Shown here in pieces: positions 34,366 through 56,634 of a DNA stretch of 64,000 nucleotides (positions within the stretch are counted from its first letter, which is position 1; every line of letters starts with the position of its first letter). Source of the stretch: a virus (taxonomy: Duplodnaviria > Heunggongvirae > Uroviricota > Caudoviricetes); the IMG/VR virus record IMGVR_UViG_3300013121_000008, positions 64,001 through 128,000 of that record; one strand, 5' to 3'. Below the pieces are notes generated by a model. The model searched no databases. It was given only the letters and a program-made list of their open reading frames with translations, and was not told the origin of the DNA. The translations under genes and the position numbers were made by a program.

Positions 34366-36326
34366 TGAGATATAAAAGTCTGACTAAAAAAAACTTAAAA
34401 CTGGAACTTATCAAGCGCTTTGTCGAAAACAATAATAGAGTTCCTTTTGATTTTGAGATAAATGATTTACTAAAAGAATATTTTAGTAATAATTTGTTTT
34501 CTTACGAGAGTGGTTTATATACGGGTCCAAAAGAAATAGAAGTATTATCTAATATTTCTGCAACACAACTAAACAACAGTTTTAATGATTTATTGTTTAA
34601 TTTTAAAAATATATTATCTAATATAGAAAGCGTTTCTAATACTTTATTTAAAAAGCATAGTGATTTAATAAATTATTTGCAACCAATAGAGAATTATTTA
34701 AAAAAAAGTAATCTTCAAGCAACTCAATTACTATTTAAAAAAGATTATTCTAATAATCTTTTGTATACTTATTTTGAAGATTTTAAATCTTTATCTACTG
34801 TTGTTTTTCCAGATACTACTTGTAGTGTTTCTCAAGGTGGCGCTTATTCTTCAATAAAAGAAATCGAAACTATTTCTAATATTCAATCAGTAAAAGGCTA
34901 TATTTATGGAAACGCAATTCATAATAATATATCTATAACGGGAGATATTAATTCATTACTTAATGAAGATGGTAATTATTATTCAATTAATATTTCTTCT
35001 TCTAATAAAGATACAATAAATTATTATTTAGAATTAACACTTCAAGAAAAGACTTATGTTAATTTATTAAAATTTAGCGGCGAATTTAATTCGCTTGAAA
35101 GTATATATATTTATATATCTGTTGATAAAAACAATTGGACCTTAGTTGAATCTAATTCAAATATATCTAATACTATTAGTATTCCAGTTAATAAAGAATT
35201 ACAATATATAAGAATTTCTTTAACTAAAACTGAATATGATTCTTTTAACGAAACTAATGGCTCTTATAATTATAGTTTTAAATTTGATAGCATTAGTATT
35301 TATAATAATGATTTTAATAGCCGCTCGATCTTAATTGCTGGGCCATATAGTTTTTATGATGAACTTGATGAATTGGTTCCTTTTAATTATATTCAATTAG
35401 AAGTTTGCGAAACTATAAGAAACAATAGCTATATAAATTATTATATATCTACTAACCAAACAGATTGGATTCCTATTTCTCCGAATAAAAAGAATATAGG
35501 ATCATCTTTGATATTTTTAAACTCTAATACTTCTGATTTTCTATCCATTAATAACGCTATCAATAATAATAGGTTAGATTATCAAAACGTTAATGGTTTA
35601 TCGCTCGAAGCGAATCAATCACTTTTGAATATTAAAATACCTATTGAACAAAAAGAATTATTGAATCCTTTAAACTTCAAGATTAAAAGAAACATAAAAT
35701 CAACAGAAGAGGTTTTTGATACTCCTTCTGGTTGGTTTTTAATAACACAAGATGATAAATATTTTTATAAAACAACTATAGAAATAGACAATCTTGAAGG
35801 CTTAACGTTAGATGTTGGTCCTAATGTATTGTTGTTAAATGGTGTAGCGGTTAGTGGAACTGTTTTAATACCTTATGGAGTTAATCAAATTTCAATTAAT
35901 TCTTCTAATTTTATTGAACTTCCTTCTGGAATGACTTCAGAAAAAGATTTTATGGTTAATGATCCTCTTTATCCTTATAATCAGAAAGCCTTAATAGAAG
36001 GTTATAACTATCCCTCTTCTTTTGTTGGAGCCAAAACTTACTTAGGCATAAGTAATTTTCATGGCTATACATTAAAATATTTAGAATATAAAGACTTTTT
36101 GAATAAAAATTCTTTAGATACATTTACAATTATTACAGATAGTGAATATATTTACGTTGTTGTAAACACGAATAAAAACTATAGTGATTGGATAAACGAA
36201 GTATATGATATATATATACCGATAGTAAATCAAGAAATTACTTCGGTTTATTTCAAAGCTGAATTCTTGACAGAGAATCTATTAGATTCTTCTACTTTGC
36301 ACAATTTTACTTTAAAGGTTGGATAA
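34365..36326 (+). CDS. Structural protein, paralog family member 3
   Basis: 653 aa; YIYISVDKNNWTLV...ELQYIRISL is a discoidin-like beta-sandwich pattern. Confidence 0.4.
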   Translation: MRYKSLTKKNLKLELIKRFVENNNRVPFDFEINDLLKEYFSNNLFSYESGLYTGPKEIEVLSNISATQLNNSFNDLLFNFKNILSNIESVSNTLFKKHSDLINYLQPIENYLKKSNLQATQLLFKKDYSNNLLYTYFEDFKSLSTVVFPDTTCSVSQGGAYSSIKEIETISNIQSVKGYIYGNAIHNNISITGDINSLLNEDGNYYSINISSSNKDTINYYLELTLQEKTYVNLLKFSGEFNSLESIYIYISVDKNNWTLVESNSNISNTISIPVNKELQYIRISLTKTEYDSFNETNGSYNYSFKFDSISIYNNDFNSRSILIAGPYSFYDELDELVPFNYIQLEVCETIRNNSYINYYISTNQTDWIPISPNKKNIGSSLIFLNSNTSDFLSINNAINNNRLDYQNVNGLSLEANQSLLNIKIPIEQKELLNPLNFKIKRNIKSTEEVFDTPSGWFLITQDDKYFYKTTIEIDNLEGLTLDVGPNVLLLNGVAVSGTVLIPYGVNQISINSSNFIELPSGMTSEKDFMVNDPLYPYNQKALIEGYNYPSSFVGAKTYLGISNFHGYTLKYLEYKDFLNKNSLDTFTIITDSEYIYVVVNTNKNYSDWINEVYDIYIPIVNQEITSVYFKAEFLTENLLDSSTLHNFTLKVG

Positions 36327-37634
36327 ATGAAATTAAATTCTTTGACTCAAAAATCAAGTCCCCAAATATTGAGGACGTTGACTGGAAATAATTTAATATC
36401 GTTGATTGCTTCTATGAACAGTCTTAACAGCGACTATAATGCTTTAATTTTAGAATGGAATAATAAATTACTTCCAGCTTTAAATTCTTTAGTCAAAGGT
36501 TCGGATGATGAGATTACAGGCTTTTCTTATAATTATATTGAAGATGGCATAAATGGAAATACTGTTTTAGTTAATAGAGAAGCTGATTCTGATTCTGAAG
36601 AATGGGAATTCTCTCCCACGCTGAATAGACAATTAACGATAAGAGAATCTTTAGCTGCTATTTATAATTCTTTATCGAATAAAGTAGATTCTATTGATTT
36701 AAATGTTTCAGCATTTACAGATTTTACTAAAGAATATATTGGTGAAGCCGCTTTTACAGAGGGAGCAGTATCGAATAGCACCTCCATGGATGCAAGATTA
36801 GAAGCTTTAGAATCTGCTACATTTCCATCTTTTACTGATACTTATTTATTATTTGGTGATGGATCTTCAACGCCCGCTACAGATTCTAATTTAGTTTGGC
36901 AAGCTACAACAGCCAGATTAATTCTTACTGGTCAATTAAGAGTTAGTAACTCTATTATATCGACTGGTGGCAATGAAAGAGGAATTGGTGCCGCCGATTT
37001 ACAATACTCTAGAAGCTCTGCTTCTCAAGTTGCATCTGGAGACGCAGCGTTTGTTGCTGGCACAAATAATACTGCTTCAGCAGCACAATCCGCTGCTTTA
37101 AATTCAGGCAATACTGCTTCTTCAAAAAATTCTTTAGCTATTGGTCAATCTACTAGAGCAGCCGGTTCTGCCGCTTTCTCTCATGGTGTAGAGTCTTCTA
37201 CTACTTACCCTTCCTCAAGAGCTTATTCTTCTGGTAAATTAGTTTCTCCTGGAGACTCTCAAGCAATAGAGCTTCATATGAGAGTTTCTACTTCTAACGC
37301 TACCCCAACTTCTCTCTATATAGAAAGCACTGGAACTAAGATTACTACTGAAAATAATACTAGCTATGGCGTTATTGCTAATATAGTGGGAAGAAATGCG
37401 ACTACAGGCGCCTCTTGTTTTTATGTAATTAGGTGTTTGGCCACAAGACAAGCAAGCGCTGCCACATTAAATCTTTCAAGTTTAGATAAAACTGTTGTAG
37501 CAGAGGATGATCCAGCTTTTGATGCCACTATAGTTCCCGACAGTAGCACTGGAACTATAGATGTAAAAGTTACTGGTTTGGCTGGAATCACTGTTCGTTG
37601 GTCTGCTGATATTAAGTTAGTAATGGTGAAGTAG
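36327..37634 (+). CDS. Tail fibre with trimeric autotransporter-adhesin (YadA-head-like) repeats
   Basis: ASGDAAFVAGTNNTASAAQSAALNSGNTASSKNSLAIGQSTRAAGSAAFSHG shows ~14-aa head repeats. Confidence 0.6.
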   Translation: MKLNSLTQKSSPQILRTLTGNNLISLIASMNSLNSDYNALILEWNNKLLPALNSLVKGSDDEITGFSYNYIEDGINGNTVLVNREADSDSEEWEFSPTLNRQLTIRESLAAIYNSLSNKVDSIDLNVSAFTDFTKEYIGEAAFTEGAVSNSTSMDARLEALESATFPSFTDTYLLFGDGSSTPATDSNLVWQATTARLILTGQLRVSNSIISTGGNERGIGAADLQYSRSSASQVASGDAAFVAGTNNTASAAQSAALNSGNTASSKNSLAIGQSTRAAGSAAFSHGVESSTTYPSSRAYSSGKLVSPGDSQAIELHMRVSTSNATPTSLYIESTGTKITTENNTSYGVIANIVGRNATTGASCFYVIRCLATRQASAATLNLSSLDKTVVAEDDPAFDATIVPDSSTGTIDVKVTGLAGITVRWSADIKLVMVK

Positions 37635-38647
37635 TGAAGTTGTTCAATAGTAATCATAATGGCAACACTACTAAAGTTAATAAAAACGAGCCATTAAAAA
37701 AGAGATTAGTTTTAAAACCAGAGCCTTCCTTTAAAAAGTCATCTTTGAAAGATGAAATGGAATTCATCAAAAAGACTTCTATAATCAAAGTTTGTGTCTA
37801 TAGAGGTTGCGGAGGTATAGGCGATATTATTATGGCTACTCCTTTACTAAAAGCAATCAAAGAAGAATACCCAAACTATAACTTATCTTTTGCTGTAGAT
37901 ACCCGAACAGCAGGTGACCTTTATGCTTCTTTAGTAAAGAATGCTCCGTTTATAGATAATGTCATTTCTGCTCAGGGAATAGTAAAAGAGAATTTTAACT
38001 TATTTAAAGATATAAGTTCTGTTTGTCTTCAGTATGAAAATTCCGGTCTTCCCCCGTTGAATAGAATTGATATATTTGCGAACGCTTGTGGGTTTAAACT
38101 AAAAGACCATTTACCTTTTTATAAGGTAGAAGACGATGAAGATGCCTGGGCTAAAGAATTTATTTCTAAAAAGTCCAATAAACCTTTATCTATAATGTTG
38201 CATACAGCTTCTTTTGATATTAAAAGAACTTGGCCAATTAACAAATATACAGAACTTATAAAAGAAATAAATAAAGAAAGAAAAGATATTACTTTCTTTG
38301 TTAATGATTTTCAAAACCACAATCCTAATTGGAATCAATATAAAGATGTTGTAAATATTTCTCAATTTAGTATAAGAGAAATTGGGGCTTTAACTAAAAA
38401 CATGGATTTATTCATTGGTCCTGACTCTGGACCTATGCATATAGCTGGGGCTCTAGGAACCAAGGGAATTATTCTTTTTGGATCTATTCCGCCAGAAGCA
38501 AGAATAAATCATTATCCTTCTTTACAGGGTATGACCGCTGGCTTAGCTTGTTCCCCTTGTTGGTATAAAGGATGTCCTTTTTCTGTAAAGTGTATGTCTT
38601 TAATTAAAGCGGAACATGTAGTGAGAAGAGTTTATGAAATTATTTAA
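37634..38647 (+). CDS. Glycosyltransferase family 9 (heptosyltransferase-like)
   Basis: GGIGDIIMATP, KRTWPINKY and DLFIGPDSGPMHIAGALGTKGIILFG are GT9 motifs; GTG start overlaps the fibre stop codon. Confidence 0.85.
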   Translation: MKLFNSNHNGNTTKVNKNEPLKKRLVLKPEPSFKKSSLKDEMEFIKKTSIIKVCVYRGCGGIGDIIMATPLLKAIKEEYPNYNLSFAVDTRTAGDLYASLVKNAPFIDNVISAQGIVKENFNLFKDISSVCLQYENSGLPPLNRIDIFANACGFKLKDHLPFYKVEDDEDAWAKEFISKKSNKPLSIMLHTASFDIKRTWPINKYTELIKEINKERKDITFFVNDFQNHNPNWNQYKDVVNISQFSIREIGALTKNMDLFIGPDSGPMHIAGALGTKGIILFGSIPPEARINHYPSLQGMTAGLACSPCWYKGCPFSVKCMSLIKAEHVVRRVYEII

Positions 38648-39785
38648 TAGTAAGAAGAACATAGAAGATCCTTTTGTGTTCACTCCTAAAACTAAAAGAA
38701 ATAGACCTATCTATATAACAAAAGAACAATCGTCTACCAGTGAATTACCTTTAGACTTTTCTAATTACTCTAATGAAGATCTTAGAGTTGGTTATTCATC
38801 TACCTGGAAAGAATCTTGTGGCATAGCTGTTTATACAGAAAACTTATCCAATGCTTTATTTAACCAAGGTATTAAAAATTTTATATATTCAAAAAATATA
38901 TCTGTTAGTGAATTATTATCTTGCATAGATAGAGATAGAATTCATGTTTTGAATATTCAATATGAACCATCAATAACTTACTCTTTAGACTCTTTCTTAA
39001 TGCTTGCTTCGGAGTTAAGAAATAGAAGAATTAAACTCTTTTTTACTTTTCATAGTGAGAGCCCTGCAACTAAAAAGCTAATAGACATTAGTAACGGTGG
39101 TATTTTTCATAAGCCACCAACCACTCAAAATCTCAATATGGATAAAGTCTTTATAGTGCCTATGGGCGTTCCTATTTTTGAACCACAAGAGTCTAAAGAG
39201 AGTTTAAGAAATAAGTATGGCTATAATCTTTCTGATAAAATATTAACAACTACAGGTTTTTTATTTACCTGGAAAGGTCACGCTAAAATACTTAATAAAT
39301 TAGTTCCTTTCTTGAAAAAAGATTCTAATTTAAAAGTTCAACTGTTAACAGCTTTTAACAGTATCAATCCTGCCGAATGTATTTTAGAAAATAAAAACGT
39401 TAAAAATGTTATAAATTCAAATGGATTAGAGAACCAAGTTCAACATATAATTAATTTTCTTCCCCAACAAGAACTAAACGAAAGATTATATATATCTGAT
39501 TTAGGTTATTTGTGGGGCGCACTAACTACTACTTCATCTTCTGCTGCATCAAAAGAATTCATAACATCTAGACTTCCATTAGTTGTAACTAATAGTAATC
39601 ATTATCATGATATAAATGAAGGAGCTATTAAAGTTTCTATAGATGAAAACATTTTCGTGAATACTATTATGAACACCGACAGTTCTAGATTGCAAACGTT
39701 ACGAGAACAGATGCAACACAAGTATAACAAGTTAAATAATAATTCTATTATATTAAAACATATAGAAATTTTTAAGGAAAAATAA
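38634..39785 (+). CDS. GT-B fold glycosyltransferase (GT4-like)
   Basis: CGIAVYTENL, LTTTGFLFTWKGH and LPLVVTN patterns; cluster context. Confidence 0.7.
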   Translation: MKLFNSKKNIEDPFVFTPKTKRNRPIYITKEQSSTSELPLDFSNYSNEDLRVGYSSTWKESCGIAVYTENLSNALFNQGIKNFIYSKNISVSELLSCIDRDRIHVLNIQYEPSITYSLDSFLMLASELRNRRIKLFFTFHSESPATKKLIDISNGGIFHKPPTTQNLNMDKVFIVPMGVPIFEPQESKESLRNKYGYNLSDKILTTTGFLFTWKGHAKILNKLVPFLKKDSNLKVQLLTAFNSINPAECILENKNVKNVINSNGLENQVQHIINFLPQQELNERLYISDLGYLWGALTTTSSSAASKEFITSRLPLVVTNSNHYHDINEGAIKVSIDENIFVNTIMNTDSSRLQTLREQMQHKYNKLNNNSIILKHIEIFKEK

Positions 39786-40580
39786 ATGATCTCAATAGGT
39801 ATTCCTACAGTTAATGGCTCTCATAGATTGGAGAGATGTTTAAGTCATATATTCAAAGATAATTCTGTACAAAGATTTAAAGCAGAAGTAATAGTTGTAG
39901 ATGATGGTAGTTCTGAATGGTCAATAGAAAAAAATAAACAATTTTGTGAACAATATGGAGCAAAATTTATAGAACACAAAGAAAGAAGAGGAGTACCCAC
40001 TGCCTGGAACACTCTTGTTAAATCATCTAGTAATGATTTAATTATCCTTTTAAATGATGATATAGAGGTTATGAAAGATTGGCTTGATGTCGTTGTGTAT
40101 ATATTAAATAATAACCCTTCTATCGGAGCTGTAGGACTGAATTCTTTTGAAGGTGTAAGACATGAAATGCCTAGCGTTCCTAGCTATGTAGAAACTAAAA
40201 CTATGTTTGGCAGCAAAAATTCACCTTTACTTTCTTGTTGTGGTAGCGCATTTGCTTTTCGTAAAAACGATTGGCAAAGTGTTGGTGGGTTTGATGAGCG
40301 TTATTTTTGCTTTTATGAAGAAATAGATTTTTGTATATCTTTATTACAAATTGGAAAGAGATCTGCTATGATTTCTTATCCCGTTCTCCATCATTACGTT
40401 GCAGAAACTACAACAACAATTTTATCTGATCCGCAACAAATTATGAAAGAAAGTCAAACTAAGTTTGAAGAAAAGTGGAATTTGAAATGGCCACAAATAA
40501 GAGAGAAATTTAATCATAAAACCATTCCACCTATTCCAGAAGTGGAAGAATGGAACTCTGCATATAAGGTATGGGTATAA
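39786..40580 (+). CDS. Glycosyltransferase family 2
   Basis: ISIGIPTVNG, VIVVDDGS, IILLNDD and VGGFDERYFCFYEEIDF motifs. Confidence 0.9.
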   Translation: MISIGIPTVNGSHRLERCLSHIFKDNSVQRFKAEVIVVDDGSSEWSIEKNKQFCEQYGAKFIEHKERRGVPTAWNTLVKSSSNDLIILLNDDIEVMKDWLDVVVYILNNNPSIGAVGLNSFEGVRHEMPSVPSYVETKTMFGSKNSPLLSCCGSAFAFRKNDWQSVGGFDERYFCFYEEIDFCISLLQIGKRSAMISYPVLHHYVAETTTTILSDPQQIMKESQTKFEEKWNLKWPQIREKFNHKTIPPIPEVEEWNSAYKVWV

Positions 40581-41476
40581 TGTCAAACAAAGTAACAATA
40601 GGAATACCAACGTATAACGGCTGGCTAAGAATTCATCAACTGCTTCAGAATATAGAACAAAGAACCCCTAAAAGTATTCCTTATGAAGTTGTTGTTTGTG
40701 ATGATTCCGGCAAAGAAGAACACAGGGATAGAGTTAAAGGAATTTGTAAAGACTTAGGCGCGGAGTACGTCTTTCATCAGAATAATAGAGGTGTGCCTGC
40801 CGCCTGGAATACACTGTCCCGCTCTACTGATTCTAAACACATTATTTTATTAAATGACGATGTTTTAGTCGCTAGAGATTGGTTACTCTTTCCTTATTAT
40901 GCACTTGAGAATAATAAGAATATAGGATCTTTTGGTTTGCATTGTTATTTTATTTCCCCTGGTGATGTTGCTACTTTACTACAAGGACCAGACGCAAAGG
41001 TTATACCTTTAGACGTAAAATATGTTAATGGAGTTTTAGTTAAAGATCAACGATTTTCTTCTATGCCTGAAAATACGGGAGGAGTACCTGGAAGAACAAT
41101 GTGTCCAACTGGATGCGCTTTTGGTTTTACCAGAGAAGTTTATAATGGTGTTGGGGGTTTTGACGAAAGATACCAAGCGTTTTATGAAGAAACAGATTTC
41201 GGTGTAGCGTGTTCTGTTGCCGGATTACCATCTGTTCAATTACCTTATCCCGGTAACTATCATATCTGGTCGCAAACATTTGCTTCGGCCCCAGAAATAA
41301 ACGCAAGTAAAATTATGAACGATTCTAAAAGAAAATTTGTTCAGAAATGGTCAGAAAAATTAAATTATAAGTTTAATGATGCCCCAGATATTCATAACCT
41401 TATAATGGACAAGATACCACCTTTAGAGCTAAAATGGTTAGACGAGAATCTTATAGAAAAGATTAGTTACGTATAG
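40571..41476 (+). CDS. Glycosyltransferase family 2 (paralog of upstream gene)
   Basis: VTIGIPTYNG, VVVCDDS, RGVPAAWN, IILLNDD and VGGFDERYQAFYEETDF motifs. Confidence 0.9.
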   Translation: MGIMSNKVTIGIPTYNGWLRIHQLLQNIEQRTPKSIPYEVVVCDDSGKEEHRDRVKGICKDLGAEYVFHQNNRGVPAAWNTLSRSTDSKHIILLNDDVLVARDWLLFPYYALENNKNIGSFGLHCYFISPGDVATLLQGPDAKVIPLDVKYVNGVLVKDQRFSSMPENTGGVPGRTMCPTGCAFGFTREVYNGVGGFDERYQAFYEETDFGVACSVAGLPSVQLPYPGNYHIWSQTFASAPEINASKIMNDSKRKFVQKWSEKLNYKFNDAPDIHNLIMDKIPPLELKWLDENLIEKISYV

Positions 41477-41485
41477 GAAAGTAAA

Positions 41486-42718
41486 ATGAAAATATTATTA
41501 TTAGATCATCCTCAATTTACCCATGGTACGTGGATGCTATATGAGGGAATAGTTAGAATTTTTGGAAGAGATTGTATAACTGTCTTTCCTCCCAAACCAT
41601 GTTTTTATGATTCAAATGCAATTAAATTAAGACTTATGGATATAAGATGGTATAGAGAGGTATATAAAAATCTTAATAATTTACCCGTTGGAGTACCAGC
41701 GCTATCTCCTGGAGAAATACTAACTTATAATGATGAAAGAGTTGTTGATTATACAAATGTTATTTTACCTTCGCCAGACAAAAGTTATCAAGACTCTTTA
41801 GACGAAGATGAATTAATATCTTTAATTAATAACAATTATTACGATTTTATTATTTTAGGAAACTCTCACAGAGTTCCTACAATTGCTCTTGCTAGACTTA
41901 GAGATAGATGTAAAAGTTTACCACCAATTATATATTGTGATTTTGGAGAAAGAGACGAGTTCAATGCTCATTGGTGGCATGTATTTAAACCAGCTTTAGT
42001 TTTTAAACAAATATTAACTCCAGAGCTTTTAGAACTCAAGGGAAGTCCTGCAGTACCTTGCGATATGTTTCCTCTTCCTCTTTCAAACCCTAGATTATTA
42101 TTAGATGAGGGTCCGCTATCTAAAAACAAAAATTTTCTTAGAAAAAGAAAAATTGACGTAATAAGTTCTTTTGGCCCCACATGGCCCACTAGACAATTTG
42201 TTCAAGATAGAGTGAAAGAGGTTTGCTCTCAGTTGGATTCTAAATCTTCTTCCTTTAAATCTGTTTTAGACGGTTACAAATTTGATATGCTATCTAAAGC
42301 AAAAATTTGTGTTTCAATGAGAGGATCAGGCAGAGATACAGAAAGATATTGGGAGTTTCCCGCTCATGGAGCCGCTATGATTTGTGACGGTACTATGGGC
42401 TGTATACATCCATTTCCATTTCAAGATAAATTAAACGCCGTCTTTTATAGAAACTTAAATGAATTAGAATCTTCTATTCATTATCTTCTTGGCGATGAAG
42501 AAAATAGATTAATTATAGCAAGAAATGGATACAATCATATAAGAAAGTATCATAGTATAGAAGCTAGAGCTTTATTCTTTTTGGGTATAATAGACAATCG
42601 AATTGGAATAAATTATGACAACGATCAACTATTTAAGTTAAATAGTATATTATCGAAATTAGAATGGGATTCAAGATTGCCTAATTGGAGTGGACCCGTA
42701 GTCGGTTATGATGAATAA
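41486..42718 (+). CDS. GT-B glycosyltransferase (CgeB/Glyco_trans_1_2- or exostosin-like C-terminus)
   Basis: LSKAKICVSMRGSGRDTERYWEFPAHGAAMI...IARNGYNHIRKYHS pattern; cluster context. Confidence 0.65.
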   Translation: MKILLLDHPQFTHGTWMLYEGIVRIFGRDCITVFPPKPCFYDSNAIKLRLMDIRWYREVYKNLNNLPVGVPALSPGEILTYNDERVVDYTNVILPSPDKSYQDSLDEDELISLINNNYYDFIILGNSHRVPTIALARLRDRCKSLPPIIYCDFGERDEFNAHWWHVFKPALVFKQILTPELLELKGSPAVPCDMFPLPLSNPRLLLDEGPLSKNKNFLRKRKIDVISSFGPTWPTRQFVQDRVKEVCSQLDSKSSSFKSVLDGYKFDMLSKAKICVSMRGSGRDTERYWEFPAHGAAMICDGTMGCIHPFPFQDKLNAVFYRNLNELESSIHYLLGDEENRLIIARNGYNHIRKYHSIEARALFFLGIIDNRIGINYDNDQLFKLNSILSKLEWDSRLPNWSGPVVGYDE

Positions 42719-42744
42719 TAATTTAAAACTTAATAAGGATTAAA

Positions 42745-43467
42745 ATGCATAGTGATTTAATTAAAACTTTAATTAAGAATAATTTGATTGATGAGGCCGT
42801 CGCCGATTCTTGGTATAATAAATTATTTCTAACAAAACACGAGCAAAACGCGGCTCCTTGGGATATATTTTTATGTAATCTTTGGAACGAAAAACCAAGA
42901 AATTCTTTTGAGGCTTTGTCTGATTTTTATGAATCTGATTGCTGTGTAGTATTTCAAGGAACTATGTCTGGTACTTGGGATTCGAGTTCGATAAAAGAAA
43001 AATTAGCTCCTTACATAAAACCTGGAACTACTGTTTTAGAGTATGGTTCTGGAGGAGGAAGAGAGGTAATTTGCGCCTTGAAAGAGGGCGCAAAAGTAAT
43101 AGCTTGCGACGTTTCTGAAAGGCTATTAACTGGAGTTAAATTACTTGCAAAAGAGCATGGTTATGAATTAGAAACCATTTTAATAAAAGAAGATATTCCT
43201 TTATTACCTTCTGGTAATGATGTTGTTATTACTATTGATTGTCTTGAGCATGTTGATAAACCAATAGAAATATTAAATGCTCTTTCTAAGTCTTTAAAAC
43301 CGGGCGGTATTATGTATTGCGAAGTTTTTTTTGGGGGACATGAGCTGTCACCTTATCATTTAGAAAAACATTATTATTTAGGAAATAACGAAACTTGGAA
43401 ATCAGTTATGCAAGAAGCTGGTCTTGAACGAATTGATGAAGAAGGTATACTTTGGAAGAAAAAGTAA
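42745..43467 (+). CDS. Class I SAM-dependent methyltransferase (probable sugar methyltransferase)
   Basis: VLEYGSGGG motif I, ACDVS and IDCLEHV...LKPGG. Confidence 0.8.
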   Translation: MHSDLIKTLIKNNLIDEAVADSWYNKLFLTKHEQNAAPWDIFLCNLWNEKPRNSFEALSDFYESDCCVVFQGTMSGTWDSSSIKEKLAPYIKPGTTVLEYGSGGGREVICALKEGAKVIACDVSERLLTGVKLLAKEHGYELETILIKEDIPLLPSGNDVVITIDCLEHVDKPIEILNALSKSLKPGGIMYCEVFFGGHELSPYHLEKHYYLGNNETWKSVMQEAGLERIDEEGILWKKK

Positions 43468-44330
43468 AGTTTACATTATTTATAATGAATGAAAAAGGAT
43501 ATTCGGTATTAAAATCTTTTTTTGACTTGTTTGGAAAAGATCATATTGATAAAGTTATTTCTTCGGAAGATCCTGGACAGGTATCTTTTTTTACTGATAT
43601 AAAAACTTTTTGCGAACAAAAACAAATTACTTTTTTTGATAGAAAAGATCTGAAACAAGCAAAATGGGAATATGCTATTGCTATAGGTTGGAAATGGCTT
43701 TTACCAACTACTAAAAATTTAATCGTGCTTCATGATTCTTTGCTTCCTAAGTATAGAGGCTTTAATCCTTTGGTTTCTCAGTTATTAAATAAAGATAATA
43801 AAATTGGGGTAACTTCTTTGTGGGCTTCAGAAGAAGCAGACAAGGGTTATATTATATCTAGTGATTTTGTTACTATTACATATCCAATAAAGATTCAAGA
43901 AGCCATTGAGCTTATTATTCCTCTATACGTTAGTTTAGTAAACGATATTGTTAAAAATATTATTTCTAATAAAATTCCAATTGGTTGCGAGCAAAACGAA
44001 AAAGAAGCTACCTATAGTTTATGGAGAGACGAAGAGGATTACGAAATCCCTTGGGACTCTTCTTCAGAATACATTAAAAGACTTATTGATGCATCTGGCT
44101 TTCCTTATAGTGGAGCTTATTCTTTTTTGAATTTTAATAAGGTTAGAATTTTAGAGGCAAAAGAAATTCCAGATGAAGTAATTATTAATCGAACACCGGG
44201 AAAAATATTTAAATATATTAATGGTTTTCCAGTAGTAGTTTGCGGCCAAGGACTTATATTATTGGAAAAAATAGTAGATGAACAAAATTCTTCTATTATT
44301 TTGAATAAAATGAGGCTTAGATTTAAATAA
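43452..44330 (+). CDS. N10-formyl-THF-dependent formyltransferase (Fmt fold; probable nucleotide-sugar N-formyltransferase)
   Basis: LHDSLLPKYRGFNP, ADKGYII and C-terminal IPWD...IDASGFPYSGAY; directly upstream of a sugar aminotransferase. Confidence 0.8.
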   Translation: MEEKVKFTLFIMNEKGYSVLKSFFDLFGKDHIDKVISSEDPGQVSFFTDIKTFCEQKQITFFDRKDLKQAKWEYAIAIGWKWLLPTTKNLIVLHDSLLPKYRGFNPLVSQLLNKDNKIGVTSLWASEEADKGYIISSDFVTITYPIKIQEAIELIIPLYVSLVNDIVKNIISNKIPIGCEQNEKEATYSLWRDEEDYEIPWDSSSEYIKRLIDASGFPYSGAYSFLNFNKVRILEAKEIPDEVIINRTPGKIFKYINGFPVVVCGQGLILLEKIVDEQNSSIILNKMRLRFK

Positions 44331-45478
44331 TGATTCCCTTTAATGTTCCCTATGTTTCGAAAAATGAACGTTCTGTTATTTCAAGTGTTTACGCTAAAGG
44401 TAAGTTTAGTGGTAATGGTTACTATACTAGATTTGCTAATCATTTGTTAAGTAAATTACATATCGGTTCAGCTTACTCTTCAAACGATTCTTCTTCTATT
44501 CTTACTACTTCTTGTACAGACGCTTTAGAAATGTCTTCAATATTATATAGTATTGAAGAAGGTGATGAAGTAATATTACCTTCTTATACTTTTGTTTCTA
44601 CTGCTTTACCTTTTGAACTAAGAAAAGCTAAATTAGTCTTTGCTGATTCTGAGCAAGAAAGACCTCATATATCTTATGACTCAGTTAGGAAATTAATAAC
44701 AAACAAAACCAAATTAATTGTTGCGGTGAACTATGGCGGGACTGGAGCTAATCTATTTGCCCTAAAATCTTTATGTGACGAGAAAGGGATATTTCTTTTA
44801 GAAGATAATGCGCAAGGTTTAGGTTCCTCTTTAGGCAAGCATCCCTTGGGTACATTCGGACAGTTAAGTACATTAAGTTTTCATGAAACTAAAAATGTAC
44901 AATGTGGAGAGGGAGGCGCTCTAATAATTAATGATTTATCTTTTGAAGACCGTGCCCATATCTTAAAAGATAAAGGTACGAATAGAAAATGGTTTGATGC
45001 GGGATATCTTCCCGAGTATAATTGGGTAGACGTTGGCTCCTCTTATTTAATGTCAGAAATATTGGCTGCAATTGTGTATTCACAATTAAATGATTTAAAC
45101 CATGTAACTTTAAGAAGAGTTGATATATTTAATGCCTATTTAAATTCATTTCAAGAATTAAAATCAAAAGGCATTTTATTACCAATTGTAAATGAAACTT
45201 ATCAAACTAATGGTCATATATTTTATTTAGTTCTTCCTAGCAAAGAAGAGAGAAACCAATTAATTTCTTTCTTGAAGAAAAAAGAGATTATGGCTGTATC
45301 TCACTATGTTTCTTTACATAAATCTCCTTACTTTATAAATAAATACCAAGGAGAAGAATTAGTGAATTCGGATAAGTTTTCAAACAATTTGGTTAGGTTG
45401 CCATTGTTTTACAATATGACTAATGATGAACTGAATTATATCATAGAAACAATCAAGAAATATTTTGGAGTCGCTTAA
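44330..45478 (+). CDS. wecE: dTDP-4-amino-4,6-dideoxygalactose transaminase-like (DegT/DnrJ family)
   Basis: MIPFN, TTSCTDALEM, SYTFVSTA, EDNAQG, SFHETKNVQCGEGG (PLP Lys) and GSSYLMSE are typical of WecE/RffA. Confidence 0.85.
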   Translation: MIPFNVPYVSKNERSVISSVYAKGKFSGNGYYTRFANHLLSKLHIGSAYSSNDSSSILTTSCTDALEMSSILYSIEEGDEVILPSYTFVSTALPFELRKAKLVFADSEQERPHISYDSVRKLITNKTKLIVAVNYGGTGANLFALKSLCDEKGIFLLEDNAQGLGSSLGKHPLGTFGQLSTLSFHETKNVQCGEGGALIINDLSFEDRAHILKDKGTNRKWFDAGYLPEYNWVDVGSSYLMSEILAAIVYSQLNDLNHVTLRRVDIFNAYLNSFQELKSKGILLPIVNETYQTNGHIFYLVLPSKEERNQLISFLKKKEIMAVSHYVSLHKSPYFINKYQGEELVNSDKFSNNLVRLPLFYNMTNDELNYIIETIKKYFGVA

Positions 45479-46203
45479 TGAAAGGAATTATATTGGCTGG
45501 AGGAACAGGTTCTAGACTCTGGCCCCTAACAAAAGTTACAAATAAACATTTGCTCCCTATATATAATAAACCAATGATTTATTATCCCATAGAATTTTTA
45601 AGAGATTCGGGGATTAAAAATATTATGATTGTTTTAGGGGGTAATTCAGTTGGCGATTTTATTAACCTTCTTGGTGATGGCTCTGGTCTTGGTGTTTCTT
45701 TGACTTATAAGCATCAAGCGAAACCAGATGGTATTGCCGGTGCATTAAAACTGTGTAGAGATTTTTGTGGAGAAGATTATTTTACTGTTTGTCTGGGGGA
45801 TAATATCTTTGAGAAACCTATAGAGAATCTTGGCAAATGGGGTTATGGATGTTCTCCAAGACCTTTATCCAAAATCTTTATACATCCCACCGATAAGCCT
45901 TCAAGTTTCGGTGTCCCAACTTTGAGCGAAAACAAAGTTATTAAAATAACAGAGAAGCCAAAAAATCCAGATTCCAATTATGCTGTAACTGGTTTATACC
46001 AATACGATAAGTATATATGGTCAATGATAGATTCACTAACGCCAAGTCTGCGTGGCGAATTAGAAATTACAGATATTAATAATTGGTATATATCTCAAGA
46101 AGGATTAAAAGCTAAAACTTTAGAGGGTTTTTGGCATGATGCTGGTTCAATAGAATCTTTATTTTTATGTAGTGAGTTAATAAGAAATGCAAATAAGAAA
46201 TAA
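45478..46203 (+). CDS. rmlA: Glucose-1-phosphate thymidylyltransferase
   Basis: MKGIILAGGTGSRLWPLTKVTNKHLLPIYNKPMIYYP, EKP, RGELEITD and WHDAGS. Confidence 0.92.
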   Translation: MKGIILAGGTGSRLWPLTKVTNKHLLPIYNKPMIYYPIEFLRDSGIKNIMIVLGGNSVGDFINLLGDGSGLGVSLTYKHQAKPDGIAGALKLCRDFCGEDYFTVCLGDNIFEKPIENLGKWGYGCSPRPLSKIFIHPTDKPSSFGVPTLSENKVIKITEKPKNPDSNYAVTGLYQYDKYIWSMIDSLTPSLRGELEITDINNWYISQEGLKAKTLEGFWHDAGSIESLFLCSELIRNANKK

Positions 46204-47128
46204 AAAAATAGTCTTAACTGGCGGTTGTGGTTTTATAGGAAACAATTTTATTGACCATTTAATTGAAAAAGAGCCATCTGATATTTTGGTAATAGATAAA
46301 TTAAGTTATGTATCTAATACTGATAAGGTAGACTATTATGGTATTCCATATTTAAAAGCCGAGATAGAAAGTTACGCTGCTTATCAGAACGTAATTAATT
46401 ACAAACCTGATATCATTATTAATATGGCTGCTGAAAGTCATGTTGACGTAAGTATAGAGAACCCTAATCTATTTTTAGATTCTAATGTTTATGGAACCGT
46501 AAATCTTTTAAATGCCGCAAAAGACTTAAATAATACTCCTTTATTTTTACAAATAAGTACAGATGAAGTTTATGGCAGTGTTAGCTCTCCTTCTGTAGAG
46601 TCTGATGGAATGTTTCCTTCTTCTCCTTATTCGGCTTCGAAAGCTTCTGCTGAACAATTTGTTCATGCTTATCATACTACATTTAAAGTTCCATTCTTAA
46701 TTACTAGAAGCTCTAATAATTATGGTCCTTTTCAACATCAAGAAAAATTAATTCCTAAAGCTATTACTAATATTCTTAATGGTGTTAAGATTCCTATTTA
46801 CGGTAATGGAAAGAATATAAGAAATTGGATTTATGTAGATGATAATTGTAAAGGAATCATTAACGTTCTTGAGTCAAACAAAACAAATGAAATCTATAAT
46901 GTTTCTTCAAATGATATCTTTTCTAATTTAGAAATTATATCTTATATCTGTAAGGTAATGAATAAAGATATTTATTCATCTATTGAATTTGTTGAAGACA
47001 GAAAAGGCCATGATTTGATGTATTACCTTTCTAATAAAAAGTTAATTAAAGACACTCCATGGAAGCAAGAGACTTCAATTATTAAAGGTTTAGAAAAAAC
47101 TATTAATTGGTATAGCTCTAAATGTTAA
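46187..47128 (+). CDS. rmlB: dTDP-glucose 4,6-dehydratase
   Basis: TGGCGFIG, AAESHVD, ISTDEVYG, PYSASK and NNYGPFQHQEKLIP. Confidence 0.92.
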   Translation: MQIRNKKIVLTGGCGFIGNNFIDHLIEKEPSDILVIDKLSYVSNTDKVDYYGIPYLKAEIESYAAYQNVINYKPDIIINMAAESHVDVSIENPNLFLDSNVYGTVNLLNAAKDLNNTPLFLQISTDEVYGSVSSPSVESDGMFPSSPYSASKASAEQFVHAYHTTFKVPFLITRSSNNYGPFQHQEKLIPKAITNILNGVKIPIYGNGKNIRNWIYVDDNCKGIINVLESNKTNEIYNVSSNDIFSNLEIISYICKVMNKDIYSSIEFVEDRKGHDLMYYLSNKKLIKDTPWKQETSIIKGLEKTINWYSSKC

Positions 47129-47877
47129 CAGAAAAGTTTAATAAATTGTTTATTGGTGCTTCTGGACTATTAGGTAGAAATTGTATTCCACTATTAGAAG
47201 ATAATATTTTTACACCTTCTAGAATAGAATTAGATATCTCTTCTGAAGAAAATATTAAAAGTTTTTTTAAAGCTTTTCCTATTGAGTTAGATGAAGTTAT
47301 TATTTCTGCCGCCATAACAGACGTAATTGGATGTAACTGTGTTAAGAAAGATCTTGCTTTACAAGTCAATGGGAAGGCGCCAGGAATTATAGCTCGCGAG
47401 GCTATCAAACATAATAAAAATATTCTTATCACTTATATTTCTTCTGATTATGTTTTTAATGGAAACTCTGGAGGATATTACGAATATGAATCTATTAATC
47501 CTGTTTATAATAATTATTATGCTTTCACTAAAGCTGCGGGAGAAATGTCATTAAGTGTTTTTAAAAATGTTAGAATAATTAGAACTTCTTTTTGTGATAA
47601 TATTTGGCCTTATGATAATGCTTTTGAAGATCAATTCACTTCAAGAGATACTATATCTATTATAGGGCCGCTAATAAGCTCATATATCAATTCTGTTACG
47701 ATTGGAATAGTTCACATAGGCACAAAAAGAAAGTCCGTTTATGAGCTTGCTAGACGCCTTAAACCCGATGTTAAGCCTTCCTCTCGTTTAGATGTTATAA
47801 AACGTACCGGAGTGAATATTCCATATGATACTTCTTTACGTTCTTGTTTTAAACTTATAGAAAAAAATAAAGGATAA
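47122..47877 (+). CDS. rmlD: dTDP-4-dehydrorhamnose reductase
   Basis: GASGLLG, ISSDYVFNG and YAFTKAAGE (YxxxK). Confidence 0.8.
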   Translation: MLTEKFNKLFIGASGLLGRNCIPLLEDNIFTPSRIELDISSEENIKSFFKAFPIELDEVIISAAITDVIGCNCVKKDLALQVNGKAPGIIAREAIKHNKNILITYISSDYVFNGNSGGYYEYESINPVYNNYYAFTKAAGEMSLSVFKNVRIIRTSFCDNIWPYDNAFEDQFTSRDTISIIGPLISSYINSVTIGIVHIGTKRKSVYELARRLKPDVKPSSRLDVIKRTGVNIPYDTSLRSCFKLIEKNKG

Positions 47878-47878
47878 A

Positions 47879-48349
47879 ATGTTTAATCTTAATAGAGAAC
47901 CTGAAATAAAATATTTAAATCCATACATGGACACTAGAGGTTATTCCTTTTTTAATATTTATCCCGATATAAAATCTGGACAAATTAATATAGGTAATCT
48001 TTTTGACGACGCCATAAAAGCTTTTCATTATCACAAAGCACAAGATGATTATTGGTTTTGTTTGAAAGGTAATATACATATTATATGCGCTCGCCCCAAA
48101 AACTTAAGTGATTATGAAACGGGAAACCTATCGAAAGAGAATTGTATTATAAAACATTTCTATATAGGTGAAAATAATCCCTGTGTGCTTAAAATACCTA
48201 TATACTGGATGCATGGTTATTGTAATTTAAATAAAGATTCTACTTTATTATATTGGGTAACCGAACCTTATAACCCTAACTGTCCAGATGAATATAGAAT
48301 TGATTGGGATATCTTTGGAAAAGATATATGGAGAAGGGAAAATAAATAA
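47879..48349 (+). CDS. rmlC: dTDP-4-dehydrorhamnose 3,5-epimerase (short cupin type)
   Basis: DTRGY, AFHYHKAQDDYW and IPIYWMHGY; context beside rmlABD. Confidence 0.75.
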   Translation: MFNLNREPEIKYLNPYMDTRGYSFFNIYPDIKSGQINIGNLFDDAIKAFHYHKAQDDYWFCLKGNIHIICARPKNLSDYETGNLSKENCIIKHFYIGENNPCVLKIPIYWMHGYCNLNKDSTLLYWVTEPYNPNCPDEYRIDWDIFGKDIWRRENK

Positions 48350-48350
48350 A

Positions 48351-49331
48351 ATGAAAACGGCGATTGTTACAGGATGTTTGGGGCAAGATGGAAGTTATCT
48401 TGTAGAATATTTGAGAAGTTTAGATTATCATGTAGTCGGAATAACAAGACGAAGATCGTCTGATGCCCTTAGTTACGGATTCCTTTCGGCTCTTAGAAAT
48501 GATCCTCATTTTGAATTATATCATGGAGATATAACTGATCCGGTATTTATTACTGATTTATTATGTAAGTATTTCCCTGATGAGTATTATAACTTAGCTG
48601 CCCAATCTCACGTACATCATTCTTTTTCTAACCCAATAGATACTTTCAATATAGATGCTTTAGCTGTAGTTAATGTTTTATCTTTAATTGAAAAACATTC
48701 AAGAAATACAAAGTTTTATCAAGCTTCTACAAGTGAATTATTCGGTGGTTTAAATTGTCCCTTTAAGGGTTATACAGAAGAATCTCCATTATATCCTAGA
48801 AGCCCTTATGGTGTTGCTAAATTAGCTGCTCATTGGGCTACAATAAATTTTAAAGAAGCTTATGGTCTTTATGCTTGTGCAGGAATACTTTTTAATCATG
48901 GCTCCCCAAGAAGAGGCTTAGATTTTATAGAAAGAAAAATAACAAACACAGTAGCTAAAATAAAGTTAAGAAAGACTAAAAAAATAGTATTAGGTAATTT
49001 AGACGCTTATAGAGATTTAGGTCATTCTAAAGATTATGTTAAAGCTCAACATCTAATGCTCCAACAAGACGTTCCCCAAAATTATATTATTGCTACTGGT
49101 AAAACCTATCAGATAAAAGATATTGTAACCTTAGCTTTTAAAGTAGCTAACATTAATTATCCAGAAGATTATATAGAGTTTGATGAAAGATTTTTAAGAC
49201 CATCTGAAGTTCCTTATCTATTAGGTAATCCAGAAAAAGCTTTAAATGAGTTATCTTGGAAACCAGATTATAATTTAGAAACTTTAATTGAAGAAATGTA
49301 TAGAAATGATTTAGAATTAGAAAAAAGGTAA
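48351..49331 (+). CDS. gmd: GDP-mannose 4,6-dehydratase (start re-assigned to ATG 48351)
   Basis: MKTAIVTGCLGQDGSYL, NLAAQSHV, YQASTSELFG, PRSPYGVAKL, LGNLDAYRDLGH and RPSEV. Confidence 0.92.
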   Translation: MKTAIVTGCLGQDGSYLVEYLRSLDYHVVGITRRRSSDALSYGFLSALRNDPHFELYHGDITDPVFITDLLCKYFPDEYYNLAAQSHVHHSFSNPIDTFNIDALAVVNVLSLIEKHSRNTKFYQASTSELFGGLNCPFKGYTEESPLYPRSPYGVAKLAAHWATINFKEAYGLYACAGILFNHGSPRRGLDFIERKITNTVAKIKLRKTKKIVLGNLDAYRDLGHSKDYVKAQHLMLQQDVPQNYIIATGKTYQIKDIVTLAFKVANINYPEDYIEFDERFLRPSEVPYLLGNPEKALNELSWKPDYNLETLIEEMYRNDLELEKR

Positions 49332-49334
49332 TCT

Positions 49335-50948: not shown

Positions 50949-51272
50949 TTGAATAAAAAAAATATTTTTTCTTCTCCTTCAGAAGAGATAGAAAAATCTT
51001 TTAATAAATTAATATCTATTTTAGATATAGCAACAGGCCCAGACCCTAATGGTAATTCTTTGCAGGAGTCGCAAGAAGCCTTTTCTAATTTTTGTGATCT
51101 TTTAGTTTTGTCAAAAGATGATGATGAAATATTAATTGATATTAAGATGGCTTGGGACTTAACTCAATTAGCTTATAATTCAAAGGGAGAAGGAGCGCCC
51201 TTGTCTAAAATAAAAGAATATCTAGAAAGAGCTAAAGCCAGAGCGATATTGAGAGAAGAAAAGAGAAATTAA
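50949..51272 (+). CDS. Hypothetical protein
   Basis: 107-aa helical ORF with TTG start directly after the fibre stop; last gene of the + arm. Confidence 0.4.
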   Translation: MNKKNIFSSPSEEIEKSFNKLISILDIATGPDPNGNSLQESQEAFSNFCDLLVLSKDDDEILIDIKMAWDLTQLAYNSKGEGAPLSKIKEYLERAKARAILREEKRN

Positions 51273-51490
51273 GTTTCTTCATCATAATTATCTTCTTCTA
51301 AAGATTCTACTTTATCTTCAACTAAAGATAATCTACTTTTTATATCATCTAACTCGGTTTCGAATAAAGTAATAACCTTACTTATAGTCGAAGCTGTAGT
51401 CGTTTTATTCAAGATGGTAAGAACGTCATTTAAAGTCTCTTCAATTAAATTAACTCGCTCTATAAGTCTCGCTTCTTGTTCTGTTGTCAT
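51269..51490 (-). CDS. Hypothetical coiled-coil protein
   Basis: 73 aa with heptad pattern; TAATG-coupled to the upstream gene. Confidence 0.5.
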   Translation of the reverse strand: MTTEQEARLIERVNLIEETLNDVLTILNKTTTASTISKVITLFETELDDIKSRLSLVEDKVESLEEDNYDEET

Positions 51491-51936
51491 TAAGGTTCTC
51501 CATCCTCAGTTGTGCTTCTATATCTTTGATAACTTCTTTCAGGGGCAGAACCACTAGAAGCTGTAGAATGATTTTCACTAATTGTTACTCTTGGCAATAA
51601 AGAAGTAGCTAAGCCTTCATAAGCTTTTACACCACTTAGAATCATAAAACCTACAGCGAATAATAGAATAAGTATTTTTTGAAAATCCTTATAGAAAGGC
51701 ATTTCTTGTTTTTGAGTTTTTTCTTCTAGTTTAGATAGAATATTATTATTTAATTTAGAGAGTTTATCATCAACGCTTTCGGCTTTTGACTCCAGACTTA
51801 AAAGTCTTTGTTGTACCATTGGCATATCTCTTTCGAACAGAAGTAACATTTTTACTTCTATTGAATTTAAATCATGTCCACTGGTTGTCTCTTGAGCTTC
51901 AGTAGACGTATTTTCTTTATTCTTAAGAGGAGGCAT
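51490..51936 (-). CDS. Putative holin-like membrane protein (coiled coil plus one TM helix)
   Basis: RLLSLESKAESVDDKLSKL coiled coil followed by hydrophobic ILILLFAVGFMILSGV; XhlA/holin-like architecture. Confidence 0.35.
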   Translation of the reverse strand: MPPLKNKENTSTEAQETTSGHDLNSIEVKMLLLFERDMPMVQQRLLSLESKAESVDDKLSKLNNNILSKLEEKTQKQEMPFYKDFQKILILLFAVGFMILSGVKAYEGLATSLLPRVTISENHSTASSGSAPERSYQRYRSTTEDGEP

Positions 51937-56295: not shown

Positions 56296-56634
56296 TTATG
56301 TAAACAATTTCTTAGTTTCTTTAGTAGCTAATTCTAATTTCTTTTCTTTAGCTTTTAAATCTCTATTAGTGAGTGGTATCTCTTCTATTTTGGCTTCAAG
56401 ACTGTTTGCTTGTGCTACAGTCATAATTCGACTTGAGTTTTTATCTAATTGTCTATTTTGAGCACCAGAGGTTTTAAACAAACCAAATTCATTTAAATCA
56501 TCAAAACCCTTCATTAAGATAATTTTTTTAAGTCTTTCTAAATTGCTTTCATTTTCTGGAGTATATTCAGTTTCATATACAACAAATAAAGTATTTACAG
56601 ATGGAATATAAATTCCTTTAGTTGATTTATTCAT
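56296..56634 (-). CDS. Hypothetical protein
   Basis: Intact 112-aa ORF in the operon. Confidence 0.45.
   Translation of the reverse strand: MNKSTKGIYIPSVNTLFVVYETEYTPENESNLERLKKIILMKGFDDLNEFGLFKTSGAQNRQLDKNSSRIMTVAQANSLEAKIEEIPLTNRDLKAKEKKLELATKETKKLFT

Follow-up and report, generated by a model that had tools for sequence, protein, structure and literature searches.

We analysed a 64,000-nt stretch of DNA (the window) that comprises bases 64001-128000 of a 158,130-bp IMG/VR virus record (IMGVR_UViG_3300013121_000008), which is AT-rich (G+C ~30%) and rated complete by CheckV. At positions 37634-49331 of the window lies an island of thirteen contiguous + strand open reading frames (ORFs) with junctions of -17 to +26 nt. 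Five of the products are glycosyltransferases; the other eight are a methyltransferase, an N-acyltransferase of Fmt/ArnA type, an aminotransferase of WecE type, RmlA and RmlB, an RmlD-like reductase, a cupin and Gmd. Comparison with related phages indicates that tail-fibre modules throughout the lineage end distally in a cassette-like glycan island, of which this is one local form. An earlier note on the window had described thirteen contiguous sugar genes between two fibre genes, and the ORF list and family matches bear this out.

The island and its flanking fibre genes

The genes of the region are listed below (positions in the window, strand, product and basis of the assignment).

34365-36326, +, conserved 653-aa structural protein; weak F5/8 type C (discoidin) match PF00754, below cut-off; orthologs at the same position in all relatives
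36327-37634, +, distal tail fibre, 435 aa; homolog with PF05658, structure model, Foldseek fibre and tailspike matches at low TM
37634-38647, +, GT9-family glycosyltransferase, GTG start overlapping the fibre stop; PF01075, model, synteny
38634-39785, +, GT-B fold GT4-like glycosyltransferase, 383 aa; structure matches, 58% identical ortholog in relative L060
39786-40580, +, GT2 glycosyltransferase; PF00535, 73 bits
40571-41476, +, GT2 glycosyltransferase; PF00535, 53 bits
41486-42718, +, Glyco_trans_1_2 (CgeB-like) glycosyltransferase; PF13524, 42.5 bits against a cut-off of 25
42745-43467, +, S-adenosylmethionine-dependent methyltransferase, probably for sugar O-methylation; family match
43452-44330, +, Fmt/ArnA-like two-domain N-acyl (formyl) transferase; Formyl_trans_N and Formyl_trans_C
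44330-45478, +, WecE-type dTDP-4-keto-6-deoxyhexose 4-aminotransferase; NF008687 passed, E. coli WecE 4piw
45478-46203, +, RmlA-type glucose-1-phosphate thymidylyltransferase, short form of 241 aa; PF00483
46187-47128, +, RmlB, dTDP-glucose 4,6-dehydratase; TIGR01181
47122-47877, +, RmlD-like short-chain 4-ketoreductase, 251 aa; TIGR01214, best structure match 2ggs
47879-48349, +, cupin related to the CapF C-terminal epimerase domain, 156 aa; PF14667, PDB 2zkl
48351-49331, +, Gmd, GDP-mannose 4,6-dehydratase, revised start; PF16363, 343.7 bits
49335-50948, +, collagen-like fibre protein, 537 aa; collagen tract, PHROG tail-fibre matches
50949-51272, +, 107-aa ORF without a family in the family scan; ends the + arm, next to the convergent replication arm

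The packing is operon-like and unbroken from the fibre gene through the thirteen enzyme genes to the collagen-like fibre gene. The fibre stop and the GT9 start overlap in the sequence TAGTG (37632-37636), and a 3-nt gap (49332-49334) precedes the collagen-like fibre gene, both as previously noted. The likeliest start of Gmd is the ATG at 48351, behind a GGAGAAGGGA ribosome-binding site; we moved the start there, and an apparent -62 nt overlap therefore vanishes. A scan for sigma-70 promoters and terminators found nothing above shuffled expectation. In codon usage, the transferases and sugar enzymes are closest to the tail genes (correlation r 0.98-0.99).

None of the 13 cluster proteins contains a membrane-spanning segment, and all are soluble. 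The absence of a flippase, a polymerase and an initiating transferase from the cluster, stated in the earlier note, extends to the whole 158-kb genome (PF02397, PF00953, PF04932). Wzx/Wzy-dependent or ATP-binding cassette (ABC)-dependent O-antigen and capsule loci need a priming transferase, a flippase or ABC transporter and a polymerase or ligase, whereas the phage cluster is without these.

The upstream fibre is composed of a conserved ~90-aa N-terminal anchor, a helical shaft, YadA-head-like beta-roll repeats and a confidently modelled C-terminal beta-sandwich knob; Foldseek ranks tail fibres and tailspikes of phages highest, with low TM. It had been described as Ser/Ala-rich, and the richness is present but stems largely from the beta-roll repeats. 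The downstream protein has ~17 G-X-Y triplets and a second short tract, a duplicated collagen and GDFWINT...LFGPK module and a Ser/Thr-rich C-terminal domain, and it matches many PHROG tail-fibre families via the collagen tract. It had been described as a Ser/Thr-rich collagen fibre; the collagen tract is short. Ser and Thr together make up ~24% of both flanking fibres versus ~15-19% of most other structural proteins, and much of the content in the upstream fibre comes from structural repeats.

The GT9-fibre pair in related phages

The 158-kb genome encodes a portal, a major head protein, a tail sheath and a baseplate wedge protein and therefore belongs to a myovirus (contractile-tailed). No match was found among 50,697 deposited phage records, either by megablast with the 15.5-kb region or by tblastn with the baseplate wedge protein, and PHROG matches of the lineage proteins were weak and generic. 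The phage is a member of an uncultured, previously undescribed myovirus lineage.

A co-occurrence survey in related phages had been proposed in the earlier note. Loci were found with an alignment of 29 GT9 homologs, and their contexts were taken from five exact-protein look-ups; single-protein locus searches with the fibre, the baseplate wedge, GT9 and WecE returned no relatives, which the GT9 alignment alone revealed. The fibre-GT9 pair occurs in at least 15 distinct relatives, which share the order of a 687-aa, a 143-aa, a ~700-aa, a 961-aa and a 653-aa protein, fibre, GT9, island and a convergent arm with ClpP. The gap between fibre and GT9 was -13 to +15 nt in 12 of 12 loci measured. The fibres themselves range from 423 to 2918 aa and are alike only over the first ~90 aa, the remainder being hypervariable. 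Exceptions to the arrangement are a small ORF between fibre and GT9 in L002 and in the P0018 contig, and fibre-like genes after the island in L061.

Downstream of GT9 the gene content differs between relatives. In L060, the closest relative, GT9 is followed by a GT4-like gene, a GT2, a GT2-methyltransferase fusion, a CgeB-like gene, two RmlD-like reductases, RmlA, an intein-bearing RmlB, a cupin and Gmd. The P0018 contig carries a GT4-like gene, three GT2, a methyltransferase, a CgeB-like gene, an acetyltransferase, an aminotransferase, RmlA, RmlB and RmlD. L061, L062 and L002 share a GT4, an aminotransferase, an acetyltransferase and Gmd, and some of them also carry a sulfotransferase and a collagen gene. 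In L004 the first GT9 is followed by another GT9, a methyltransferase and a HAD-like protein, and in L012 by three tiny ORFs. Gmd orthologs (59-77% identical) close the island in close relatives, and collagen-like genes follow Gmd in three of the four informative ones, L002 and L061 among them. The closest relatives keep the GT9/GT4-like and Gmd/collagen flanks and exchange the middle, which by analogy resembles bacterial O-antigen loci and Megavirinae clades (PMC10117803). In L002, L061 and L062 the Gmd ortholog (59-67% identical) lies beside a DegT aminotransferase and a PglD-like acetyltransferase, the arrangement that would be expected for an N-acetyl-perosamine-type pathway. Among 80 island ORFs of more distant relatives, Pfam identified methyltransferases (of TylF type and others), sulfotransferases, HAD hydrolases, GT25, GT32 and Gmd, as well as accessory genes unrelated to glycans.

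GT9 occurs as a tandem of two genes in L004 (10001-11933) and as a fusion of ~660 aa with two GT9 stretches in L020 (10001-11980). Long GT9 ORFs of other relatives, in L023 (9899-11884) and, at ~680 aa, in L008, L014, L017 and L018, probably represent the same fusion. Inteins with homing endonucleases were seen in two sugar enzymes, namely RmlB of L060 (13955-15997; 680 aa, LAGLIDADG_3 match) and Gmd of L023 (12818-15043; 741 aa, Intein_splicing, Hom_end and LAGLIDADG_3 matches).

The GT9 protein scored 74.3 bits against PF01075 (cut-off 22). In its AlphaFold2 model (337 aa; pLDDT 86.4, pTM 0.84), residues 1-34 are disordered and the two-lobe GT-B fold follows directly; the top Foldseek matches were 3tov, 1psw and 2gt1 (WaaC), with E values of 1e-11 to 1e-14, and TibC was also matched. 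More than 270 homologs at 40-64% identity lie on phage-sized contigs, many of 140-206 kb. Cellular GT9s are at most 26% identical, and the only two 'genome' matches above 40% identity are phage contigs binned into metagenome-assembled genomes (MAGs). Residues D64, H190-S193, K197/R198, W200 and G262-G266/H269, which belong to the predicted catalytic and donor-binding motifs, are invariant or nearly so among the 29 homologs. Judging by motif likeness, the N-lobe Asp of the GD motif, the Lys of HTxS...K(R)xWP and the donor-binding DSGPMH motif may correspond to D13, K192 and D261 of WaaC. Given the phage-specific clade and the invariant motifs, GT9 therefore looks like a gene of the core morphogenetic module and not like a recent host-derived accessory.

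Two further features of the GT9 protein were set aside. A four-Cys knuckle (C-x2-C-x4-C-x5-C) differs in spacing from the iron finger of TibC and is common to ordinary cellular GT9s, so that it does not discriminate between them and BAHT enzymes. The N-termini of GT9 and of the GT4-like protein are alike (M/V-K-L-F-N-S followed by a ~45-aa charged extension; 37634-37651 and 38634-38651). A targeting signal was discarded as an explanation, as the GT9 N-terminus varies among the 29 homologs and is disordered in the model. The 383-aa GT4-like protein itself has no Pfam match; a structure search of the ESM Atlas returned a GT-B/GT4 fold (TM 0.73-0.80 to GT4 clusters), and a local iterative search with hidden Markov models yielded one true ortholog only.

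The nearest named homologs of the WecE protein are all from Bacteroidota (46-48% identity), which hints weakly that the host, or the donor of the gene, is a Gram-negative flavobacterium. One phage contig of the lineage (L064, PBLS01000003.1, 111.8 kb, the same contig as L013) was deposited within a 'Magnetovibrio sp.' MAG and a 1.8-kb fragment (L063) within an 'uncultured archaeon' MAG; these placements are probably binning contamination and at best a weak host hint.

On the + strand of the window, a nearly gapless run of structural genes (~800-51272) meets the convergent replication arm, which carries primase, ThyX and ClpP. Two proteins of this arm, across the junction from the fibre genes (51490-51936 and 55190-56068, - strand), contain stretches of strong hydrophobicity (Kyte-Doolittle maxima over 19 residues, 2.18 and 2.40) and are candidate holin or membrane proteins. 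A small cupin on the same arm (56627-57022, - strand), with weak D-lyxose isomerase and mannose-6-phosphate isomerase C-terminal matches, could touch sugar metabolism.

Sugar-nucleotide enzymes and the proposed pathway

We assigned gene functions from family matches, and the chemistry described here is predicted from them. The WecE-type protein passed the equivalog model NF008687 (418.6 against a cut-off of 375), and its best structure match was E. coli WecE (PDB 4piw, E 4.9e-82), with 6blg at E 2.9e-81. The aminotransferase branch would lead to a dTDP-4-amino-4,6-dideoxyhexose, Fuc4N to judge from the nearest equivalog, or possibly Qui4N. RmlB scored narrowly under the NCBIfam equivalog TIGR01181 (346.6 versus 365.1 bits) and RmlA below its equivalog cut-off (211.8 versus 360.65 bits); the family match is clear for both. 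The RmlD-like reductase reached 81.5 versus 224 bits with TIGR01214.

The cupin at 47879-48349 had been labelled RmlC, which we revise: it falls below the PF00908 cut-off and matches the C-terminal cupin of CapF (PF14667; PDB 2zkl). The gene order, RmlD-like reductase and then CapF-type cupin, mirrors the domain order of CapF. Judging from these family matches, the two enzymes could make a 6-deoxy-L-hexose from a dTDP or a GDP keto-sugar. Gmd is without a dedicated partner enzyme in this phage.

The enzyme called a formyltransferase in the earlier note has both Pfam domains (N and C) of that family but not its canonical catalytic Asn. His104 and Asp140 of ArnA align to His94 and Asp130, whereas the catalytic Asn102 of ArnA aligns to Val92. 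Known sugar N-formyltransferases (the ArnA N-domain, VioF, WbtJ, WbkC) have an Asn-His-Asp triad, of which the phage enzyme keeps His and Asp only. Val at this position is the consensus of the Fmt/ArnA-like family (372 representatives, E<1e-30; alignment A4), a large family of ~295-aa two-domain proteins with invariant His and Asp, the chemistry of which may differ from that of classical sugar N-formyltransferases. The gene overlaps the aminotransferase gene in the phage, and a 49% identical homolog overlaps a DegT aminotransferase gene in a Wzt-type O-polysaccharide locus on a 528-kb bacterial contig (L143:7001-9027). The two genes therefore form a conserved cassette. The product is likely to be an N-formylated, or otherwise N-acylated, amino sugar, formyl transfer being suggested by the coupling to the aminotransferase.

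The term 'self-contained', which had been applied to the cluster, is overstated, for GDP-mannose, glucose-1-phosphate, one-carbon and methyl donors and the GT9 donor must come from the host. The genome contains no ADP-heptose pathway and no PfkB- or SIS-type (SIS_2) enzymes, and any donor for GT9 would therefore be host-supplied. A protein encoded at 62434-63294 (- strand), considered as HldE-kinase-like, was rejected (no Pfam family at E <= 0.001, no PfkB in the genome). Two CTP_transf_like (nucleotidyltransferase) ORFs lie elsewhere (137847-138248 and 20477-21511 of the record); they form no ADP-heptose pathway because neither a PfkB kinase nor an SIS isomerase accompanies them.

In the pathway that we propose, RmlA and RmlB would produce dTDP-4-keto-6-deoxyglucose, which the WecE-type transaminase and the Fmt/ArnA-like enzyme would convert to a dTDP-4-acylamido (probably formamido)-4,6-dideoxyhexose. 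The CapF-type cupin and the RmlD-like reductase would provide a rhamnose-type 6-deoxy-L-hexose, from a dTDP or GDP keto-sugar, and Gmd would provide GDP-4-keto-6-deoxymannose. The conserved GT9 would put the first sugar, from a host-supplied donor, onto a conserved acceptor; the GT4-like, the two GT2 and the CgeB-like transferases would lengthen the chain and the methyltransferase would cap it.

Acceptor of the glycan

We consider it most likely, at about an even chance, that the island serves to O-glycosylate the fibre proteins of the phage itself, in the cytoplasm of the host while virions are assembled, and we favour this explanation over remodelling of the host surface. A methylated and formylated glycan on virion fibres or capsid had been suggested in the earlier note. 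The link to fibres has been strengthened by the tight lineage-wide GT9-fibre pair and the tail-gene codon usage, while the acceptor itself we infer. Also in favour of virion proteins are the core-gene status of GT9, the late-operon site between two fibre genes, and the solubility of all the enzymes in a genome that encodes no lipid-carrier machinery. As in virus-encoded virion glycosylation systems, transferases and sugar pathways lie within the structural module and their composition is lineage-specific. A swapped island middle would give a different fibre glycan in each phage.

Several known systems resemble the proposed one. In mycobacteriophages, capsid and tail-tube subunits are glycosylated at their C-termini (Freeman 2023 as quoted in PMC12619734 and PMC12801897). 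According to these quotations, the glycosyltransferases lie in or next to the structural operon and virion proteins are the proposed acceptors, as here; however, the glycans sit on capsid and tail tube, whereas the candidate acceptors here are fibres. The present island also differs from the systems so quoted in its five transferases and its own pathways for dTDP/GDP deoxysugars, aminosugars, N-acylation and methyl tailoring. In Megavirinae (Mimivirus, Moumouvirus, Tupanvirus), clusters of 6-33 genes build clade-specific fibril glycans. Like the island, they contain transferases together with pathways for nucleotide-activated rare amino and deoxy sugars of bacterial type, in clade-specific composition (PMC10117803). 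These are eukaryotic giant viruses with capsid fibrils and verified chemistry, whereas the island belongs to a bacterial tailed phage and its chemistry is predicted.

Two bacterial systems are comparable. The BAHT enzymes TibC and Aah have a GT9 fold and O-heptosylate beta-helical adhesins encoded beside them (PMC4358343). They act in the cytoplasm, on serine residues and without a lipid carrier (PMC4358343; PDB 4rap, 4rb4), and are characterized by an N-terminal beta-barrel, a beta-hairpin thumb, an iron finger (Cys339/342/358/370) and a dodecameric state (PMC4358343). The phage GT9 shares the GT-B fold (Foldseek E ~1e-9, TM ~0.6) and adjoins a beta-helical adhesin-like gene, but its model is without the N-terminal beta-barrel. 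BclA of B. anthracis and B. cereus is a collagen-like exosporium fibre that carries L-rhamnose and anthrose, a 2-O-methylated, N-acylated 4-amino-4,6-dideoxyhexose (PMC6222408). The Rml-type enzymes, 4-aminotransferase, N-acyltransferase and methyltransferase of the phage match this chemistry and lie beside a collagen-like protein. However, the N-acyl group of anthrose is 3-hydroxy-3-methylbutyryl and that of the phage sugar probably formyl, the priming enzyme is another one, and the collagen tract of the phage is short with few G-X-T triplets.

A possible but less probable alternative is that deoxy and amino sugars made by the phage serve to remodel the core of the host lipopolysaccharide (LPS) or lipooligosaccharide (LOS), or some other glycolipid intermediate that faces the cytoplasm; exported by host MsbA and Lpt, the product would block superinfection or stop progeny from binding to cell debris. 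Much of the evidence that weighs against a fibre acceptor points in this direction. The best NCBIfam matches of GT9 are the LPS heptosyltransferases I, II and III, all below cut-off (TIGR02193, 57.5 versus 185.3 bits; TIGR02195, 42.4 versus 134.6; TIGR02201, 40.4 versus 170.2), and the NCBIfam scan gave no match to the BAHT model TIGR04414 at E <= 0.001. The GT9 fold equals that of WaaC and HepII, which Foldseek ranks alike with TibC. GT9 is a family whose members extend the lipid A-core, and soluble enzymes suffice for this. The missing flippase, polymerase and priming transferase had been taken as an argument for a virion target; the absence is real, but it is not decisive, because LPS/LOS core extension needs only soluble transferases, and it fits a host target. 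The acceptor lobe of GT9 is conserved as strongly as the donor lobe. GT9 therefore cannot recognize the hypervariable part of the fibre, and by this conservation pattern its acceptor must be a conserved one, that is, the fibre N-terminus, another structural protein or the LPS core, a conserved inner core being well suited. Moreover, the nearest named WecE homologs come from Gram-negative Bacteroidota, and the Fmt-like/aminotransferase pair also occurs in the bacterial Wzt-type locus. In the distant group L020-L028, a tandem-fused GT9 and the island run with the replication arm, still abutting fibre genes tail to tail. Ser/Thr enrichment of the fibres is inconsistent across the lineage, and the case for a virion acceptor is made from gene content, synteny and analogy.

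Host remodelling is also the published interpretation of the closest phage clusters. In pelagimyophages and large cyanomyophages, hypervariable host-recognition regions likewise mix fibre genes, LPS-type glycosyltransferases and deoxysugar enzymes with a gene content that differs between relatives, and the glycan genes are read as host O-chain modification (PMC7029224; PMC12801897). Those phages are T4-like, whereas the present lineage has no detectable similarity to cultured phages; GT8 was the most represented family in them and no conserved fibre-coupled GT9 was reported (PMC7029224; PMC12801897). Compared with the inner-core enzymes WaaC, WaaF and WaaQ (PDB 2gt1, 1psw), the phage GT9 has the same PF01075 domain and GT-B fold and, by motif likeness, the conserved GD and DSGPMH motifs. 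However, it stays far under the equivalog cut-offs, belongs to a phage-specific clade with at most 26% identity to cellular enzymes, is encoded in a phage structural operon and is accompanied by no heptose-donor pathway in the genome. Its fixed position tight against the fibre gene would be unusual for a host-tuning accessory, and a late-operon place with tail-gene codon usage suits an early superinfection block poorly.

We regard it as unlikely that the glycan goes to another cytoplasmic acceptor, such as a different conserved virion protein (of capsid, sheath or baseplate), a pilin or flagellin of the host, or a glycoconjugate that is soluble or secreted, with the fibre adjacency reflecting an insertion-tolerant arm junction. 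The junction does behave as a hotspot: in relatives (L007-L018, alignment A2) it also holds response regulator, histidine kinase, AhpC/thioredoxin/redoxin and DUF5658 genes, and it is a site of small inversions (m73; the whole island in L020). GT9 homologs of unrelated phage lineages lie beside a helicase or a head protease, with mixed fibre adjacency, and the conserved acceptor lobe would fit any conserved protein. These observations, too, count against fibres as the acceptor. On the other hand, the close lineage keeps GT9 at the 3' end of the fibre gene although recombination replaces both the fibre body and the island, and collagen-like fibre genes recur after Gmd. Hypermodification of the phage DNA with sugars, as an escape from restriction, is very improbable. 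Some phages do have glycosyltransferases that attach diverse glycans to hydroxymethylated bases (Pyle 2024 as quoted in PMC12619734), but DNA glycosylation is unlikely here because the 158-kb genome is without a ThyA-family dCMP/dUMP hydroxymethylase. Moreover, the transferases are of GT9, GT4, GT2 and CgeB types and not of DNA-glucosyltransferase families, and the cluster lies in the structural and not in the nucleotide-metabolism module.

Published precedents exist both for fibre-region glycan genes of marine myophages and for glycosylated virions among phages and giant viruses. What appears new from the sequence comparisons is the conserved GT9-fibre pair across an undescribed myovirus lineage, the swapping of sugar pathways as cassettes while the flanks stay conserved, and this particular enzyme set. 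Tentatively, and with somewhat less confidence than in fibre glycosylation itself, we propose that in a widespread lineage of uncultured aquatic myoviruses GT9 priming and recombining cassettes produce 'serotype-like' fibre glycans, N-formylated or N-acetylated and sulfated or methylated.

Under either explanation, the island is a compact source of rare-sugar enzymes. Among them are an atypical Fmt-like enzyme in a pathway to a 4-acylamido-4,6-dideoxyhexose and an epimerase/reductase that resembles a split CapF; the GT9 and fibre pair is suited to heterologous expression. If the host envelope is the target, the island would be the counterpart of seroconversion in a lytic phage, with a conserved core enzyme at its base. 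If fibres are the acceptor, protein glycosylation would belong to the routine and evolvable means by which abundant aquatic phages recognize their hosts. A fibre glycan could act as a shield (against proteases, antibodies or grazers), as a means of tuning adsorption or as a mimic of host surfaces, and cassette turnover would add a phage diversity that is invisible to protein comparisons. Tailed phages of Gram-negative hosts would then possess a virion counterpart of bacterial O-antigen diversity.

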